The position numbers and the translations under genes were made by a program. Shown here piece after piece: positions 4,130-64,000 of a stretch of 64,000 nucleotides of DNA. The notes below the pieces were generated by a model. It had not been told where the DNA came from, searched no databases, and saw only the letters and a program-made list of their open reading frames with translations. Within the stretch, counting starts at the first letter, position 1, and each line of letters starts with the position of its first letter. The stretch comes from an uncultured Planctomycetaceae bacterium (GTDB lineage: Bacteria > Planctomycetota > Planctomycetia > Pirellulales > Thermoguttaceae): positions 373,557 through 437,556 of the forward strand of contig CAVWXT010000002.1 of NCBI GenBank assembly GCA_963759115.1, read 5' to 3'.

Positions 4130-4226
4130 GATTTTCGACGGCGGTCTTGCTTGTCCTGGCGGCCAGAAGCTGCCGACTTCCAAAACTCTCTTGACTTTAT
4201 GTCGCATGAACACTATAAGTAGCACG

Positions 4227-5079
4227 ATGCTGCACGACGCTCTGCTTTCGGACAAGATCTGCGATCTCTTGGGCAAACCCTATAGCGCCGGCGAAGGGTA
4301 CGCTATTTATTGTGCTGATTGTCTGCGAGTCCTGCAAAACATGCCCGGCGACATCTTCTCCCTCACGGTTACTAGCCCACCATACAACATTGGAAAAGAA
4401 TACGAGAACCCGCTGCCTCTTGAAAAGTACCTGAGTTGGTGCGAGCAATGGATGCAAGAGGTCTATCGCGTCACGCGACCAGATGGAGCGTTCTGGCTCA
4501 ACGTCGGATACGTTGAAATTTCGGGGAGGGCGAAAGCGATTCCGCTGCCGTATCTGCTGTGGGATAGATCGCCGTTCTATCTGATTCAGGAAGTGGTGTG
4601 GAACTATGGTGCAGGAGTGGCTGCCAGCAAGTCTTTATCGCCCCGGAATGAGAAGCTCCTCTGGTACGTGAAGGACCCAGGGAACTACACATTCAATCTC
4701 GACCTCATTCGGGACCCGGAGGTGAAGTATCCTCTCCAAAAAAAGAACGGCAAACTGAGGTGCAACACAATCGGGAAGAACCCATCGGATGTATGGCAGG
4801 TGGCAAAGGTGACTTCGGGAGAAGACCGCGCCTCACCGGAGAGGACACCCCACCCTGCACAGTTTCCTCTTGATCTTGTGAATCGTGTGGTGCTCGGATT
4901 CTCAAATCCGGGCGAGTTGGTGCTGGACCCCTTTATGGGTTCCGGCACCGTAGCTGTGTCTTGCCTTCAATCCGGGCGGAGGTTTCTCTGGAATCGAGAT
5001 CAAACCCGCCTATTGTGAAATCGCGGCGAAACGAGTTGAGAGGTTTCTGGCAGACAAACGATCACGGCTCTTCGATTAA
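4227..5079 (+). CDS. DNA methyltransferase (beta-class N4-cytosine / N6-adenine family), M subunit of a type II R-M system; 1-bp frameshift near 4990
   Basis: Motif IV SPPY (VTSPPYNIGKEY) precedes motif I (LVLDPFMGSGTVAVSCLQSGRRF), which is the beta-class order. After GRRF the frame breaks; the -1 frame reads the expected GIEIKPAYCEIAAKRVERFLADKRSRLFD*. TTGACT-N17-TATAAG lies immediately upstream, with ATG 4227 at about +7, so the mRNA is probably leaderless. Confidence 0.75.
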
Positions 5080-5850
5080 CGAGGCGGTATTTCCGTGCAT
5101 TCGTCCAAGAACTTCTGATTGTTCGGCTTGATCCTGCGCAAGCGCCGGGAAGTTCTCCCTCAAAGCGAAGGAGGTCCCCAATTGTGTTAATGCCAAGCTG
5201 AGCGAGACGTTCCGACGTAAACGGCCCAACTCCATCCAACAGCAAAACAGGCGCATGTTGTCGATATGGGCCGGGGATCGGAATGAGCTTGTTATCGTAA
5301 ACCGCTTGTTTCAACCCGGCCATCTGGCCGGTGGGCGCTTCTTGAGGATCCCAGTCGGAAGCGTCAATCCAGCCGAATCGGATCAGGGTCATGGTTTGAC
5401 TGAAGAAATTGACCGTGATGTAGAACCCCGATTTCTCCTTCTTGGGGACAACATCGCTTCCTGACTTCTGGCCGTAGCTCCGATTGCCATATACCTTGAA
5501 GCCTGCTTGGCCAGACGTTTTGATTTCGATTGAGAACGTGGATCGGGTACGTAGACAATATCCTTATCCTCTTTCGATTGGTTCCCGCGCCACTGCGTGG
5601 GTGCGCGTTGCTCCAGTTCGCGGGCCAGCAAGACCTCGAAGAAGTAACCGACAATTGTCGCAGGAACCTTGAGGTCCGAGAGTTTCACGGAGATCGAGCC
5701 CGTTCCTACAGTGGATTGCCAGAGCGTAGCCCACGCCGTGGTCGATGCGTCCAGCAACTCGGTTGACTTGAGCGGGTGACTGTTGACAAGCTGCCGGGTA
5801 ATGCTGAGCCAAGACGATTCTGGCTTTCCCGAATAGGGGCTGGTTGTCAT
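5062..5850 (-). CDS. putative type II restriction endonuclease (PD-(D/E)xK candidate), frameshifted; boundaries approximate
   Basis: It lies immediately downstream of and in the same orientation as the C-protein gene, convergent with and overlapping the MTase 3' end. Joining the 5389..5850 and 5000..5392 frames gives ...KDIVYVPDPRS/TFSIEIKTSGQAGFKVYGN..., a VPD-x7-E-x-K motif. No other similarity is recognisable, as is typical for REases. Confidence 0.4.
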
Positions 5851-6071
5851 CTTCCCTCCGGCCCGCCGAACAGATCGCGTGGATGAACGCCGAGGGCTTC
5901 GGCGAGACGGATGATATTTTTGAGGGCAATGTTTCGTTCACCGCGTTCCACGCCACCCATGTACGTGCGGTGTATTCCAGCTTTGGCGGCGAGAGCTTCC
6001 TGGCTCAATCCTGTTTTTTCTCGCAAGGCGTGTACGCGATCACCGAATCGTTTCAATTGGGCGTCTTTCAT
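5847..6071 (-). CDS. controller (C) protein, XRE-family HTH transcriptional regulator of an R-M system
   Basis: 74 aa: MKDAQLKRFGDRVHALREKTGLSQEALAAKAGIHRTYMGGVERGERNIALKNIIRLAEALGV, a classic C-protein HTH. Its stop abuts the start of the REase candidate. Confidence 0.7.
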   Translation of the reverse strand: MKDAQLKRFGDRVHALREKTGLSQEALAAKAGIHRTYMGGVERGERNIALKNIIRLAEALGVHPRDLFGGPEGR

Positions 6072-6227
6072 CGAAGTGCAGTTTGAGTAATTGAACACAA
6101 TGAGTCTACACCCTATGAGTAGCACACGCGTCGGACGTTCGGATGTTCCTCGCCTTGGTCGTTGCCTTGCCCGCGAGCAGAGCGTCTGCTACTATCAGTG
6201 TGGAAGCGGATTGATGGGAGCTGACCG

Positions 6228-6461
6228 ATGAGCTTCGTGATTCAAGCCATCTATGAGAATGGCGTTCTAAGGCCATTGGAAAAGCTGGCCTTACGCGAAC
6301 GCCAGCATGTCCGACTTGAGGTCGAGACGAACGTCGCGTCAAGCGGCGACGGCCCGGCGCAGGATCGTGCCGATCTCCTTGAAGGTGTTCAGGCAGCGAC
6401 GGGCATCCTCGATCTGGCAGAACACTTCGACGACTACCGGTTCGGCCGCCGCAAGCGATGA
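6228..6461 (+). CDS. DUF104-family antitoxin (VapB-like partner of a PIN toxin)
   Basis: MSFVIQAIYENGVLRPLEKLALRERQHVRLEV matches the DUF104 signature (IxAIYENGVLKPLE). Its stop overlaps the next ATG in an ATGA junction. Confidence 0.6.
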   Translation: MSFVIQAIYENGVLRPLEKLALRERQHVRLEVETNVASSGDGPAQDRADLLEGVQAATGILDLAEHFDDYRFGRRKR

Positions 6462-6571
6462 AGCCCGTACCCTCTGATTCCAACAGTTCGTCTCCGTACC
6501 CTCCGCGCCACCGCAGTGCGATTCCCGTGTGTCTGTTCCCCCCCACTAGCCCCCTTTCCGCTGCCTGCTAA
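6458..6571 (+). pseudogene. possible remnant of a vapC (PIN) toxin gene
   Basis: A 37-aa ORF (MKPVPSDSNSS...) starts with ATGA overlap on the antitoxin stop, at the position where a PIN toxin N-terminus (MK..LDTNV) would be expected. It runs into a C-rich non-coding stretch. Confidence 0.2.
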
Positions 6572-17682: not shown

Positions 17683-17693
17683 TCCACAACCTG

Positions 17694-19453
<1,760 letters not shown>

Positions 19454-59963: not shown

Positions 59964-61037
59964 CTATTCGCGCGGTTTGTCGCTCGCCGACGCGCGGATC
60001 ATCTCGCCTGCCTTGTGCAACGTCTTCACGTCAACCTCGCGCAACCGGCCGGCGCGATCGGGAGCCACGTCGAGCGTGAAGATGTTGCCAACCTTCACCG
60101 CGCCTTGATAGAGCTGAACGATGTCCTCCGCGGGCATGGCCTGATCGTCGTATTCAGGGCCGGCGTAGAACCAGCGGCCCGCCTTCCGCCCGCCCAGAAT
60201 GGGAACGCAAAACTCGGCCGCCAGGAATCCCGTGTAGTTGCGAATCTCCGGCTGCTTCGCGCCGACGCCGGCCCCGCGCGGATCGTCCAATGGCGTGGGA
60301 CTGCCCATTTCGCCGAGGCGCAAGTCGCCGGCCGGCGGGCCGTGGTTGAAGCCCACGAAGCAGCCTGGCTGGAGACTCTTCACGAAGGCCGCGGTGGCCG
60401 GCTGGTCCAATCCGCCGTCGCCCAACGCGTGCTCGAACCAGATGAACTCCACCGGGCCATACTGGGTGAGCAGCTCTTTGAGTTGGGCCTTCTTGACTTC
60501 GGGATTGCTGCCGCCGCCCTGATCTACGCCGCTGGTCATGCCGCCGGGGTACTTCTTGCCCTTGGTGGCGCCGGGCCAATTGGCGCCGCCATCGATGGCG
60601 TCCGGCCAGGTCCAATCGCCCTGACCGTAGTAAAGGGCCAGCTTCAGGCCGTGCTTGTCGCATGACCTCCGCACCTCGGCCAATACGTCCTTTCCCAGAG
60701 GGCTGTTGGTCACTTTGCGGTCGGTCGTTTTGGTGTCCCAGAGGCACATGCCATCGGCGTGCTTGGTGACGAACAGCAGGTAGCCCATGCCGGCCTCTAT
60801 GGCTACGCTGGCCCATTGGTCGGTGTCGCACCCGCCGGGGTTGAAGAGCGATATCTTGGTGCTGCCCAACGCGATGTCGCTGCCGGTGAACGTGGCCAGC
60901 GACCAATGGATGAACATGCCGAACTTCAGGGCCTTGAGTTCCTCGGCCCGTTTCGTCATTTCAACCTCCGCCGATCGGGCCGTCGGGGCGGCTATAACAG
61001 CAGCGCACAACGCAACCGCAACACAAACTCGTAACAT
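59964..61037 (-). CDS. alpha-L-fucosidase (GH29), secreted
   Basis: MLRVCVAVALCAAVIAAPTARS signal; ...GMGYLLFVTKHADGMCLWDTKTTDRKVTNSPLGKDVLAE... Confidence 0.7.
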   Translation of the reverse strand: MLRVCVAVALCAAVIAAPTARSAEVEMTKRAEELKALKFGMFIHWSLATFTGSDIALGSTKISLFNPGGCDTDQWASVAIEAGMGYLLFVTKHADGMCLWDTKTTDRKVTNSPLGKDVLAEVRRSCDKHGLKLALYYGQGDWTWPDAIDGGANWPGATKGKKYPGGMTSGVDQGGGSNPEVKKAQLKELLTQYGPVEFIWFEHALGDGGLDQPATAAFVKSLQPGCFVGFNHGPPAGDLRLGEMGSPTPLDDPRGAGVGAKQPEIRNYTGFLAAEFCVPILGGRKAGRWFYAGPEYDDQAMPAEDIVQLYQGAVKVGNIFTLDVAPDRAGRLREVDVKTLHKAGEMIRASASDKPRE

Positions 61038-61054
61038 GCAGCACCTCCCTCCGG

Positions 61055-62112
61055 TTATTTCTCTGAAGGCAGCTCTCGAATCAGTCGCCCGACCTCGCGG
61101 AGCGTCTTGACGTCGATCTCGCGCAGCGCCTGGCGATTGGGGGCCACGCTGAGCGAGAAGATGTTGCCGTACTTCACCGCGCCTTGGTAGAGTTCGAGAA
61201 TATCGGCCGCCGACATGGCCCTGTCTTCGTTCTCCGGGGTATAGAACCAACGGGCCGGCTGCTTGGGGAGATTCTGGATCGGCTTGACGAACTCCGCCAC
61301 CAAATACCCTTTATAGTCGGCAATCCCCTTCTGTTTGAAGTTGACGCCGGCGCCCTTGGGGTCATCGAGCGCGGAGGGGCGGCCGCCTTCGCCCAGCCGC
61401 AGGTCGCCGCCCGGCTCGCCCGAGTTGTAGCCGACGAAACAGCGGGGCTGGAGACTCTTGACGAAGGCCGTGGTCGCGGCGTGATCCAAGCCGCCGTTTC
61501 CCAACGCATGATCGAACCAGATGAACTCCACCGGTCCGTATTGAGTCAACAGCTCACGAAGTTGCGCTTTCTTGACTTCGGGATTGCGGCCGCCGGCCTG
61601 CGGGATGCCGGCGATCATGCCACTGGGATATTTCTGCCCCTTGGTCGCACCCGGCCAGTCGGCCCCGCCCTCGATGGCCTCGGGCCAGGTCCAGTCGCCC
61701 TCCTCATAGTAGAGGGCGAACTTCACGCCGTACTTTTCGCACGACTTCCGCGCCGCGGCCAGGATGTCCTTGCCCCACGGGCTGTTGGTCACCTTCCGGT
61801 CGGTCGTCTTGGTGTCCCACTCGCAGAAGCCGTCGCAGTGTTTTGCGCAAAAGACACAGTAGCCCATCCCTGCTTCTTTCGCCACGCTGGCCCATTGGTC
61901 GATCTCGCAGCCCGTGGGGTTGAAAAGGGACAAGTCCTTGGCCCCGATGGTCTCGTCCTTGCCGGAGAAGGTGCTCAATCCCCAGGGGATGAACATGCCG
62001 AACTTGAGGTTCTTCAGTTCCTCCGCCCGTTTGACTGCATCGGCATCGGCCGATCGGGCGGCAGGCACGGCAGTGAGACTCGCACACACGGCGAGAACAA
62101 GGGTTCGGAACA
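61055..62112 (-). CDS. alpha-L-fucosidase (GH29), tandem paralog
   Basis: MFRTLVLAVCASLTAVPAARS signal; about 65% identical to the downstream copy. Confidence 0.7.
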
Positions 62113-62215
62113 TGTGACGCCTCCGTTTCGCGTGGTTCGCCCGTATCTTGGGCGATCCGACTGCGAATGTCAACATGCGGGGTTCTCGCCGCAGGGCCAA
62201 TGAGTTCTTCGATGT

Positions 62216-62278
62216 GGGAGGCGACTCCAGTCGCCGATTGTCCGAAATCAGCCGCAAATCGGCGACTGGAGCCGCCTC
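62216..62278. repeat. family-G palindromic repeat, copy 2 (GGAGGCGACTCCAGTCGCCGA ... CGGCGACTGGAGCCGCCTCC)
   Basis: The hairpin ends 3 nt before the group II intron 5' end. Confidence 0.6.
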
Positions 62279-62281
62279 CTA

Positions 62282-63067
62282 GTGCGCTTGTGAGTGTATC
62301 GAATCAGCAAGGTGCAAGTCCTTGTCGAAATTGGGTTTGAACTTCGTAACCGAAAGTAACTGCGTCCTCGTGAGAGGGGGTGGAGAGCAACTGAAGGTGA
62401 ACGGCTGGTCCGCAGGATGACGAACTCGATTCGGCCGGTTGTCGTGGCGAGCCTGCTAGGAAAAGGCGAAGCCCAAGTGACGCTGTGGTCCTCGCAAGGG
62501 ATGCGGTCGGCAGACCGCGCGGTAAGCTCCGGGGGGAAACCAAACCAAGCCCCAGAGGCGGCAACAGGTGGTTGGAGGCGGAACGGTCGGAAGGTTTGAT
62601 ACATGAAGCAAGGAGACCTGGGCGGGTACAAGGACGAAGTTCATTGTCCCTGATAAGGATACGAAGAATCGACCGCCCAGGAGTCAGAGCGTCCATACGA
62701 GCGAGGAAGCGGGGCAATGCCCGTCGAGCAAAGGGACGCAGGAAAGTGGATGAAACATGACGCACGGCCAAAACCACACCGTACCGCGAGTGTCGGCAAC
62801 GACTAGCCACGACGGACTGCGTCAGGCACACGTAACTTGGCTCAGATTGGCCGCACCGTCGATGTTGCATGTTGGTGGCCTTCCCGTGAAGGTCAGGGCC
62901 TTTCGCTTCTGCCGATCCCGAGAAGGAACCTTGTTTCCTTCCCGCGCTCGGTTCACCAATCCTCTACGAGGTAACACCACTAACCGGAGAGCCGGATGCG
63001 GGAAATCCGCCAGTCCGGTTCGGAGGGAGGGGAGGCCGGGAACTTAACCGGCCTTCCCTACCCTTAT
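62282..63067 (+). ncRNA. ORF-less group II intron (about 786 nt)
   Basis: 5' GUGCG; canonical domain V GAGCCGGAUGCGGGAAAUCCGCCAGUCCGGUUC at 62969..63001 (AGC triad, 9-bp lower helix, CA bulge, GAAA loop); domain VI with a bulged A at 63060, 7 nt before the ..UUAU 3' end. No RT-like ORF; the only ORFs inside are short and Arg-rich. Confidence 0.7.
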
Positions 63068-63353
63068 CAAGTCCCGGTTGGGAAGGACTGATCGGCCCTC
63101 GTTCTCGCCGCACGCCGAACCTGGGCGCCTCAACATAACGCGCCAACACGCCCATTTTGCCAAATCAACCGTGTTTCGCGCGTTTGCGCATGCATGAAAA
63201 GCTATTCAGCCGTAAGGGTTTGCTCAAGCCGCAGCGTCAATTCGACGAAGTAGGAGGGAGAAGGCCCCGTCCGAACCGCGCGGGCGGTCTGGACGTAGGT
63301 TCCAACTGCCTGGCGCCGCGCCGACGCGCCACCCCAACGCAAGCGCAATGGTA

Positions 63354-64000
63354 TGGCTCAACGAAGCAGCCCCATTCCGAATCCCGACTGGTCCGACCTG
63401 GGCCCGCAGCCCGGGGGACTGCTGCTGGCGGTGGCCGACTGGATCGCCGACTTCGGCGGCGTGGTGATGGATTGGATCGTCGGCCTGGGCAACATCTCCA
63501 CGTTCTCCCTGCGGACCTTCGGCTGGATGCTGACGCGGCTGCCGCGCAGGGAGACGATCCTGCCGAACTTCTACCAGATCGGCGTCTTGAGCCTGCCGGT
63601 GGTGGCCCTGACGGGCACCTTCATCGGCATGGTGCTGGTGGTGCAGAGCTACGTGCAGTTCCGCAATCTGCACCTGGAGGCGAAGCTGGGGGCGGTCATC
63701 AACATGTCGCTGGTCCGCGAGCTGGGGCCGGTGCTGGCGGCCACGATGCTGGCCGGCCGGGTGGGCAGCGCCATGGCCGCCGAACTGGGCACCATGCGCG
63801 TCACCGAGCAGATCGACGCCCTGGTCACGCATGGGCGCCAATCCGATCCATTACCTGGTCGTGCCGCGGTTCCTCGGCTGCCTGCTGCTGATCCCGGCGC
63901 TGACGATCATGGCCGACTTCATGGGCGTGGTCGGGGCGCTTGTTCTACGCCGTGCAGCTGCTGGGCATCGACTCCCATCATTACCTGGAGAACTCGCAGC
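63354..64000 (+). CDS. mlaE: MlaE-family ABC transporter permease (partial, runs off the window), two or more 1-bp frameshifts near 63840 and 63945
   Basis: [13 protein letters not shown]...[22 protein letters not shown]...[37 protein letters not shown], then in other frames [35 protein letters not shown]. Confidence 0.65.

Follow-up and report, generated by a model that had tools for sequence, protein, structure and literature searches.

A group II intron without an open reading frame in an inverted pair of REP-type palindromes from an uncultured Planctomycetaceae bacterium

The stretch of DNA analysed here (the window) comprises 64,000 nucleotides (nt) of an uncultured Planctomycetaceae bacterium (GenBank assembly GCA_963759115.1, contig CAVWXT010000002.1, positions 373,557 to 437,556). 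Its plus strand carries a genuine and complete six-domain group II intron of 786 nt at positions 62282-63067, which has no open reading frame (ORF) for an intron-encoded protein (IEP). This intron very probably belongs to a widespread lineage and became non-autonomous itself by a deletion in domain IV; the lineage would show class C-like targeting of the tags of repetitive extragenic palindromes (REPs), in the present case within an inverted REP pair. The observations that carry this reading are the anatomy of the intron, the loss of the ORF, the covariation of two tertiary or exon contacts (EBS1-IBS1 and alpha-alpha'), the placement at a REP tag and the presence of empty orthologous sites.

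The intron starts with GUGCG at 62282 and ends with AU at 63066-63067, and the same ends were found throughout its relatives. The Rfam model Intron_gpII (RF00029) matched over its full length at 62987-63067 (56.5 bits with a gathering score of 40; E 2e-8); nothing else in the 64 kb reached the gathering score of an Rfam model. The minimum free energy (MFE) fold of the 786 nt resolved six domains: domain I (intron nt 6-331; 62287-62612), domain II (332-404; 62613-62685), domain III (408-458; 62689-62739), domain IV (460-704, 245 nt in length; 62741-62985), domain V (708-740; 62989-63021) and domain VI (742-784; 63023-63065). The 33 nt of domain V form the AGC triad, a 9-bp lower helix, a CA bulge, a 4-bp upper helix and the 5-nt loop GAAAU; the fourth upper pair, which closes the loop, is changed from G-C to A-U in one relative (locus L046). 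In domain VI, the branch point is a bulged A (63060) located 7 nt from the 3' end (63067). A preliminary description of the window, made from the sequence alone, had named the GUGCG end, the domain V, the bulged A and a length of about 786 nt, and all of these agree with the sequence and with Rfam. Two of the checks that it had proposed, a covariance-model search (Infernal/Rfam) and folding, yielded the Intron_gpII match and the six-domain fold, the latter with the covariation described in the following.

For domains I-III, an RNAalifold consensus was calculated from ten sequences, the window and nine relatives (L055, L099, L046, L064, L080, L019, L048, L014 and L115). It contains 92 pairs, 62 of them with compensatory changes (covariation term -19.2 kcal/mol); in domain I such changes occur in most helices, and domains II and III were likewise recovered in both folds. 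The sequence alpha (GGUUUG, 62334-62339) is complementary to alpha' (CAAACC, 62541-62546) on the terminal loop of a domain I stem-loop, and the two covary, reading UUGGUCAG/CUGACCAA in L055 and GAGUUUG/CAAACUC in L099. At 100 positions the nine relatives show no variation, and the window ribozyme deviates at 3 of these; as the leave-one-out range for the relatives is 0-13, the window RNA is no more decayed than copies that carry a reverse transcriptase (RT).

Relatives were found by scanning a species-representative genome collection with a degenerate pattern for the 33-nt domain V, which revealed 119 loci. The nine loci named above align with the window at 70-76% identity in domains I-III and at 80-91% in the 3' ~110 nt. 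One Planctomycetota metagenome-assembled genome (MAG) contributed two loci, L006 and L073, which are 88% identical over the last 140 nt and cut by contig ends. Members of the lineage were found in MAGs of Planctomycetota, Acidobacteriota, Verrucomicrobiota and Proteobacteria. The RT-bearing relatives L055, L046, L138 and L141 are 1.9 kb long (1.92 kb for L055 and L046) and show 71-76% identity in domains I-III. Domain IV of L055 and L046 holds an ORF of 445-452 amino acids (aa), and the IEP of the relatives, which lacks an endonuclease domain, matches TIGR04416 (368-372 bits), RVT_1 and GIIM. With E <= 1e-60 as the limit, the L055 IEP has at least 8000 protein homologs. Among these, the best 120 are at least 72% identical and lie almost all on contigs of about 2 kb, as would be expected if the elements are multi-copy and break assemblies. 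Of the lineage-type domain V matches, about half (L010, L006, L073, L011, L025, L036, L059 and others) lie less than 250 nt from a contig end, and L010 has intron fragments at both of its ends.

The nucleotide alignment between the window and the relatives stops at intron nt 471-535 and restarts at nt 647-676, and about 1.15 kb of the ancestral RT ORF is deleted in domain IV of the window. Alignment and blastx detected the remnants of this ORF: domain IV keeps the Shine-Dalgarno-like AGGAAAGUGGAUG, an ATG at 62757, about 28 N-terminal codons (MTHGQNHTVPRV... in the window, MTRHTEDTPAAVP in L099) and the last ~8 codons (...RARFTNP in the window, ...AHARFVNP or AAHVRFVQS in the IEPs; blastx E 3.6e-5). 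No intron ORF on either strand had a Pfam match, and no RT similarity was detected by blastx in the intron between the retained termini or by tblastn with the IEPs elsewhere in the 64-kb window. Judged by these alignments, the intron has lost its RT/maturase by an internal deletion in domain IV, and this loss makes it non-autonomous. The preliminary description was thus right in listing no IEP ORF, of which only the termini are left; of the full-length RT-encoding relatives that it expected elsewhere in the genome, examples were found in other genomes and none in the 64-kb window.

The intron is preceded by a long hairpin, earlier designated family G, at 62217-62279 (arms 62217-62239 and 62257-62279, 23 nt, 96% complementary, 17-nt loop), with only UA (2 nt) between hairpin and intron start; the upstream 70 nt fold with -47.9 kcal/mol (z = -9.0). 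The previously noted position just 3' of a palindromic hairpin, as in class C introns, was hence confirmed at 2 nt past the 23-bp hairpin. The hairpin consists of two inverted REP units. REP unit 1 (62214-62237, plus strand) reads GTGG-GA-GGCGAC-TCCA-GTCGCC-GA and has a degenerate GTAG tag, a 6-bp stem and a 4-nt loop. REP unit 2 (62259-62281, minus strand), read on the minus strand together with position 63068, is G↓TAG-GA-GGCGGC-TCCA-GTCGCC, its tag being split by the intron (the arrow marks the intron position here and below). The hairpin arm sequence occurs in the window only at 62217-62279 and 17696-17787 (4 matches, 0.01 expected). The latter belongs to a REP pair between groES and groEL (17692-17791; plus-strand tag GTAG at 17693, minus-strand tag GCAG), which carries no intron, as the preliminary description had stated for this second family-G copy. 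In total, the window has four REP units with the tags GTAG, GCAG, GTGG and GTAG, the stem GGCGAC/GTCGCC and the loop TCCA, arranged in two inverted pairs with different spacers. REPs of the GTAG superfamily are defined by a GTAG tag (GYAG/GTRG), a stem of 6-9 bp and a short loop, often in inverted pairs (PMC3733652). By sequence, the family G units have this layout, and their inverted pairs resemble REP doublets forming hairpins (REPINs). No family-G REP was found in 143 other loci. On the minus strand of the empty groES-groEL pair, the stem GGCGAC-UGGA-GUCGCC and the following UCCUA↓C (between 17693 and 17694) repeat the occupied target exactly; its plus strand has UCCUG↓C, where pairing would include one G-U wobble. 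The site of neither strand is used.

The 5' exon is recognised by a five-nucleotide exon-binding site, EBS1 (UAGGA, 62457-62461), at loop positions 3-7 of the hairpin GAGCCUGC-UAGGAAAA-GGCGAAGCC, which pairs with the intron-binding site IBS1 (UCCUA, 62277-62281), the final 5 nt of the 5' exon. EBS1 covaries with exon positions -1 to -5, and EBS1-IBS1 covariation was seen in nine of ten lineage members with a constant loop register. The EBS1/IBS1 pairs of the window and its relatives are UAGGA/UCCUA, UGGUA/UACUA, UAGGU/GCCUA, CAGGG/CCCUG, ACCCU/GGGGU, UCAUUC/GAAUGA, UCAUUC/GGAUGA and UAGCGA/UCGCUA; L046 retains four of five pairs, and L115 alone does not fit. We assigned EBS1 because of this covariation; the stem-loop of the D1D4-3 model that matches the EBS1 hairpin is presumably the EBS1 loop of the O. 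iheyensis intron. The same register with different sequences in the relatives fixes the 5' boundary of the intron, and the invariant 3' end of the lineage, ...CCCUACCCCUAU↓C (CCCUACCCUUAU↓C in the window), fixes the 3' boundary. The first nucleotide of the 3' exon, IBS3 (C, 63068), is the complement of the G in the GTAG tag, and a C is found at this position in 17 of 21 lineage-type 3' junctions. G62571 is a candidate for EBS3: it lies in the only alignment column to change with IBS3, showing G when IBS3 is C, but U in L064, whose IBS3 is A. As this is a single covariation event, the assignment is tentative.

Three nucleotides downstream of G62571 lies the octamer GGAGGCGG, which the preliminary description had proposed to pair with CCGCCUCC of the exon. 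This pairing was rejected: the octamer is part of the core block GGUGGUUGGAGGCGGAA, which is conserved in relatives with unrelated 5' exons, and no preference for the cognate duplex was found. Since the block is kept whatever the exon, GGAGGCGG is not an exon-binding site, and it is EBS1 at 62457-62461 that covaries. The octamer occupies 62574-62581 instead of 62573-62580, the sole slip in the earlier coordinates. For EBS2, duplex energies between exons (-17 to -6) and domains I were calculated for the cognate and for all non-cognate combinations; the means of -13.5 kcal/mol (cognate) and -12.4 kcal/mol (non-cognate) gave no EBS2 signal. GGCGGC at 62557-62562, complementary to GCCGCC of the exon, was rejected as EBS2, being conserved core without covariation.

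The insertion sites of the relatives were compared as ligated exons, read on the strand opposite to the intron. In 11 of 12 relatives (all but L046) a hairpin ends 0-5 nt upstream of the intron, and in this spacing the lineage behaves like class C. The ligated exons showed G↓TAG followed by a stem-loop at seven of the 12 independent sites and CG↓TC at two more, so that at the GTAG and CGTC sites the tag is split between G and T. Individual GTAG sites are G↓TAG-TA-GGCACAC-TCC-GTGTGCC (L055), G↓TAG-GCGAGTCUC-TCC-GAGACTCGC (L099), G↓TAG-CGACGGTG-TCCC-CACCGTCG (L014) and G↓TAG-GCCG... (L046). The L048 site is CG↓TC-A-TCCCCGC-GCAG-GCGGGGA, and L019 has TC-A-stem as in L048, the base preceding its G being beyond the end of the locus. 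The rule was tried on new sites that were fetched via the IEPs and had not been used in forming it. L138 and L139, one site in two samples, read CTG↓TAG-GGAACGCC-CTCCGT-GGCGTTCC, and L141 reads G↓TAG-CA-GGCACAC-GCC-GTGTGGG; both fit the rule of tag plus hairpin, and the visible 2-nt exon of L140 is compatible with the tag rule. Intact GTAG copies of the occupied unit were found elsewhere in the same locus for L055, L099 and L138, which identifies the target hairpins as real repeats; the intact copy in L138 pairs inversely with the occupied unit, as in the window.

By these alignments, the lineage appears to enter a conserved REP tag (CTA↓C as seen from the intron strand, G↓TAG as seen from the REP strand), with CG↓TC taking its place in a proteobacterial subgroup. 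GTAG and CGTC tags define large REP superfamilies (PMC3733652). Whether the lineage, widespread and without endonuclease, is actually specialised for homing into REP tags (G↓TAG, and CG↓TC in the proteobacterial subgroup) is in our view evenly balanced. In the window, L055, L099 (both copies), L010 and L138, which represent different MAGs, the target hairpins differ in their stems but have similar loops (CGGAG, C-UGGA-G and C-ACGGA-G on the intron strand; TCC, TCCA and TCCGT on the REP strand). This similarity could mean that the REP families are related or that the intron prefers such loops.

The intron lies between divergent genes. The minus strand carries a fucosidase gene of family GH29 (PF01120) and the plus strand mlaE (start near 63428; PF02405 in aligned orthologs), with the intron 360 nt upstream of mlaE and on the strand of that gene; the intergenic placement given in the preliminary description is therefore correct. 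A protein search with the adjacent GH29 fucosidase revealed close homologs on the contigs L134 and L136, which carry the same divergent fucosidase-mlaE order and have neither REP pair nor intron. Window positions 61077-62189 and 63194-64000 align to L134, the gap between them being 85 nt in L134 versus 1004 nt in the window, and the two are collinear once 62194-63112 is taken out. On this comparison, the insertion is recent enough for empty orthologous sites to be found. Intergenic blocks at 62140-62177, which includes GTTGACAT on the minus strand, and at 63198-63265 are kept in the window, L134 and L136 and likely represent promoters or leaders belonging to the fucosidase gene and to the divergent mlaE; the insert sits between both blocks and disrupts neither. 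The window has tandem GH29 fucosidase paralogs on the minus strand (59964-61250 and 61055-62113; about 67% protein identity), a pair also present in L136.

Taken together, the target of the lineage would be a stem-loop followed by IBS1 (3-6 nt; here UCCUA with EBS1 UAGGA) and a one-nucleotide IBS3 (C), with no detectable EBS2. The intron would have entered the right-hand unit of an inverted REP pair within a palindromic element of 121 nt, probably by reverse splicing into the single-stranded REP hairpin and subsequent reverse transcription by an RT provided in trans from a full-length copy. The ribozyme may still be splicing-competent. In the simplest history, the REP element would have been inserted first, and the intron second into its GTAG tag.

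Several observations weigh against this interpretation. None of the best 120 IEP homologs is on the source contig (595,001 bp) and the 64-kb window holds no RT copy, which leaves the supply of RT in trans unsupported for this genome. The window copy is the sole ORF-less member among about ten assessable lineage members: of the 21 matches with the lineage domain VI, all with enough upstream sequence carry RT, making it an exception within its own lineage. A metagenome scan for the occupied family-G junction GGAGCCGCCTCCTRGTGCG gave 14 matches, all by chance and without hairpin or intron, hence no sign that the ORF-less copy moved after the deletion. A consensus scan detected no sigma-70-like promoter upstream of the intron, which makes its transcription and splicing putative. 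Finally, direct repeats of 12 nt and inverted repeats of 18 nt around a 907-nt unit, described further below, mean that REP element and intron may have arrived jointly.

The first two of these observations, together with the failure to find another copy in the window or by the metagenome scan and the perfect empty target 45 kb away that has stayed unoccupied, would also suit an ORF-less intron that is inert, neither moving nor splicing usefully, and that persists since its intergenic site is neutral. We consider this unlikely, as the ribozyme core is preserved like that of RT-bearing relatives (the 3 of 100 invariant positions given above), EBS1-IBS1 (5 bp), alpha-alpha', domain V and the branch site are intact, and the 5' stem of domain IV with its Shine-Dalgarno region is retained. 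The 5' stem of domain IV is the usual binding place of the IEP.

The hallmarks of class C (IIC) introns are a domain V stem 2 bp shorter than in IIA and IIB, CGC in place of AGC, an 11-nt epsilon' bulge with AGGAA, an IBS1 of 3-4 bp and no EBS2 (PMC1702495). The present domain V has the AGC triad and 9 + 4 bp with a 5-nt loop in 33 nt, the epsilon' region reads GGAGAGCAA in place of AGGAA (with GGUGGAGAGCAAC at the aligned position in all lineage members), and IBS1 has 5 bp in the window and 3-6 bp, mostly 5-6, in the relatives. The 5-nt domain V loop (GAAAU) and the location of alpha' on the terminal loop of a stem-loop are found here as in IIE and IIF introns, where alpha' is on the terminal loop of the DId3 stem-loop (PMC3753933). 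The conserved, covarying EBS2-IBS2 pairing of IIE and IIF was not seen here, with no exon-specific complementarity detected. Compared with RTs in the PDB, the IEP of the relatives scored highest with GsI-IIC (218 bits) and 7uim (211 bits), followed by TeI4h (141 bits) and LtrA (137 bits), a comparison in which class D, E and F structures are not represented. The Rfam D1-D4 models remained below their gathering scores in the window and in five relatives; group-II-D1D4-3 (gathering score 32) was best with 27.2 bits in the window (domain I) and 19.8 bits in L055.

An ordinary IIC intron after a terminator-like hairpin would explain the position 2 nt after the hairpin, the short IBS1, the C at IBS3, the lack of an EBS2 signal, the endonuclease-less IEP of the relatives with its top scores to IIC RTs, and the rank of group-II-D1D4-3 among the models. 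The triad, the 13-bp domain V with its 5-nt loop, epsilon', the EBS1 of 5-6 bp in most members, the 458 nt of domains I-III and the D1-D4 scores all argue against it. Moreover, a terminator consensus scan found no U tract at the hairpin, and as it also stands between divergent genes, it terminates nothing. Such an ordinary IIC member is improbable. Targeting is like that of class C, but membership in the IIC ribozymes is doubtful; of the class C likeness suggested in the preliminary description, the placement 3' of a hairpin holds and strict membership does not.

Comparison with described systems places the intron itself among known kinds, and we rate the lineage as new in its target choice and its combination of RNA traits. 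It shares with the class C introns B.h.I1 and O.i.I1 the entry a few nt 3' of a DNA stem-loop, recognition by stem-loop, short IBS1 and IBS3 with a candidate EBS3 and without an EBS2 signal, and, in the full-length relatives, an IEP without endonuclease domain that among solved structures is closest to the IIC RTs. It differs from them in the AGC triad, the 33-nt domain V with 5-nt loop, the lack of an AGGAA epsilon', the larger ribozyme and the EBS1 of 5-6 bp, in targeting GTAG- or CGTC-tagged REP units instead of U-tract terminators and, for the window copy, in the missing IEP. Insertion of class C introns after terminators, other inverted repeats and attC sites is already known (PMC4424553, PMC1702495). 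Like the IIC-attC introns (S.ma.I2; PMC4424553), the lineage uses a folded repeat on which another recombination enzyme, specific for single strands, also acts, and enters at or next to the conserved core sequence of that enzyme; the target here is, however, a REP unit, the substrate of REP-associated tyrosine transposases (RAYT/TnpA-REP), and not an integron attC site. With IIE and IIF introns (Cl.be.I2, Pe.th.I2, Ge.ur.I1; PMC3753933) it has in common the 5-nt domain V loop, the placement of alpha', a ribozyme of 450-700 nt without the ORF and an overlapping host range, Solibacter and Kuenenia introns being listed under F/g5 (PMC4244168). Those introns have a conserved EBS2-IBS2 pairing and homing sites described as sequence-specific, whereas our lineage gave no EBS2 signal and uses hairpin sites.

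The IEP types g6, U1 and U2, which are not class C and lie near class C in the tree, have 5' ends directly after predicted Rho-independent terminators (PMC8919778). They show the same hairpin-adjacent behaviour, but REP tags as target are not reported there; compared by description, the lineage may be one of these three types. ORF-less bacterial group II introns are known, described as rare and usually found in genomes with related full-length copies (PMC4424553). The window intron resembles trans-spliced cyanobacterial copies and C.te.I1 of Clostridium tetani (PMC4424553) in lacking an IEP, in the ORF remnants of domain IV and in its presumed dependence on the IEP of a related copy, and differs in lineage and target type. 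The family G units resemble GTAG REPs and REPINs (PMC3733652, PMC3116915) in the tag or its GTGG and GCAG variants, the optional dinucleotide, the 6-bp stem, the short loop, the inverted pairs and the variable spacers. They differ in that only four units occur in 64 kb and that one pair is bordered by 12-nt direct and by inverted repeats, which is not a described REPIN feature. Two of nine Pseudomonas putida introns are REP-associated according to a table entry (PMC1525189); in the literature searched this was the only link between group II introns and REPs, and no account of insertion into the REP tag was found there.

The borders of the insert bear on how it arrived. The 12-nt direct repeat GTTCTCGCCGCA is present at 62182-62193 and 63101-63112, resembling a target-site duplication; it has exactly two copies in the 64 kb (0.03 expected), and L134 has it once, in diverged form. 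Directly inside it are imperfect terminal inverted repeats, AGGGCCAATGAGTTCTTC at 62193-62210 on the left and GAAGGACTGATCGGCCCT at 63082-63099 on the right (18 nt, 83% complementary). REP pair and intron are thus bordered like a MITE (a transposable element of the miniature inverted-repeat type) with a target-site duplication, and without the intron the element has 121 nt (62194-62281 plus 63068-63100), which form one long hairpin of -76 kcal/mol. These borders, and the fact that L134 and L136 are without both REP element and intron and that no REP-only intermediate was observed, are what would be expected if the intron had arrived as cargo of a 907-nt MITE-like element (62194-63100) by DNA transposition and not by reverse splicing. 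But the flanking UCCUA fits EBS1 and the junction falls at the G↓TAG that is usual for the lineage, as expected if the intron itself chose the REP unit; the terminal inverted repeat is not above chance elsewhere in the window (3 matches, 1.4 expected); and the other REP pair has no such borders, as no ungapped direct repeat was found around it. A sequential history, with the element first and the intron second, accounts for all observations, and we regard transposition as cargo as quite improbable. A weaker direct similarity exists between 62232-62254, in the loop region of the hairpin, and 63149-63171 (18 of 23 identical); its start-to-start distance is 917 nt, compared with 919 nt for the 12-nt repeat, and we found no explanation for this spacing.

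That the domain-V-like sequence is a piece of a protein-coding gene or a chance match, for which one could cite overlapping ORFs of 96 aa (62757-63047, plus strand) and 188 aa (62304-62870, minus strand), is already refuted, as both ORFs are without Pfam match, the covariance-model match has an E of 2e-8, base-pair covariation is extensive and the whole segment is missing from the orthologous loci.

Well preserved, with clear parents, a precise insertion and empty orthologs, the window intron offers a clean natural case of a non-autonomous ribozyme. Its relatives yield a testable target rule, a REP stem-loop followed by CTA↓C, which connects retro-mobile introns with REP/REPIN elements as another kind of selfish DNA, extends structure-based targeting past terminators and attC sites and predicts where such introns occur, namely at REP tags of REP-rich genomes. 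If homing into REP tags is true, REPs would join intrinsic terminators and integron attC sites as a third class of structured DNA targets. Read on the REP strand, the tag is the motif recognised and cleaved by REP-associated transposases, and the homing would be performed by a ribozyme with IIE/IIF-type traits and not the canonical IIC domain V. REP families would serve as landing pads on which introns and their ORF-less derivatives spread without damage to genes. Annotation pipelines that rely on an RT ORF or on Rfam D1-D4 models miss the lineage. A compact ribozyme with a short, defined recognition motif could also be of use for targeting work.

The scan for relatives revealed further arrangements. 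L099 2503-7186 and L080 3307-7685 (minus strands) are full-length relatives of 4.4-4.7 kb, in which the RT ORF is split by an insertion. In L099 this insertion has an ORF of 688 aa (4201-6267) on the opposite strand, whose N-terminus we take to resemble a serine recombinase. A different compact group II lineage was found in L007 (two copies), L029, L031, L040, L042, L035 and L012, from Bryobacterales, Acidobacteriota and Pirellulaceae MAGs. These L007-type introns have a domain III-like motif 120-340 nt before domain V, no RT within 3 kb, and GAUGAGCGGG... after domain V in place of the usual domain VI. No RT was found upstream in 24 of the 77 assessable matches to the 33-nt domain V pattern; introns that have such a domain V and no ORF may therefore not be as rare in MAGs as published work implies. 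In L033 (minus strand; 4572-4616 and 6446-6478), a domain V match lies upstream of a domain III-like match, an arrangement that could represent two separate introns or a circularly permuted one.

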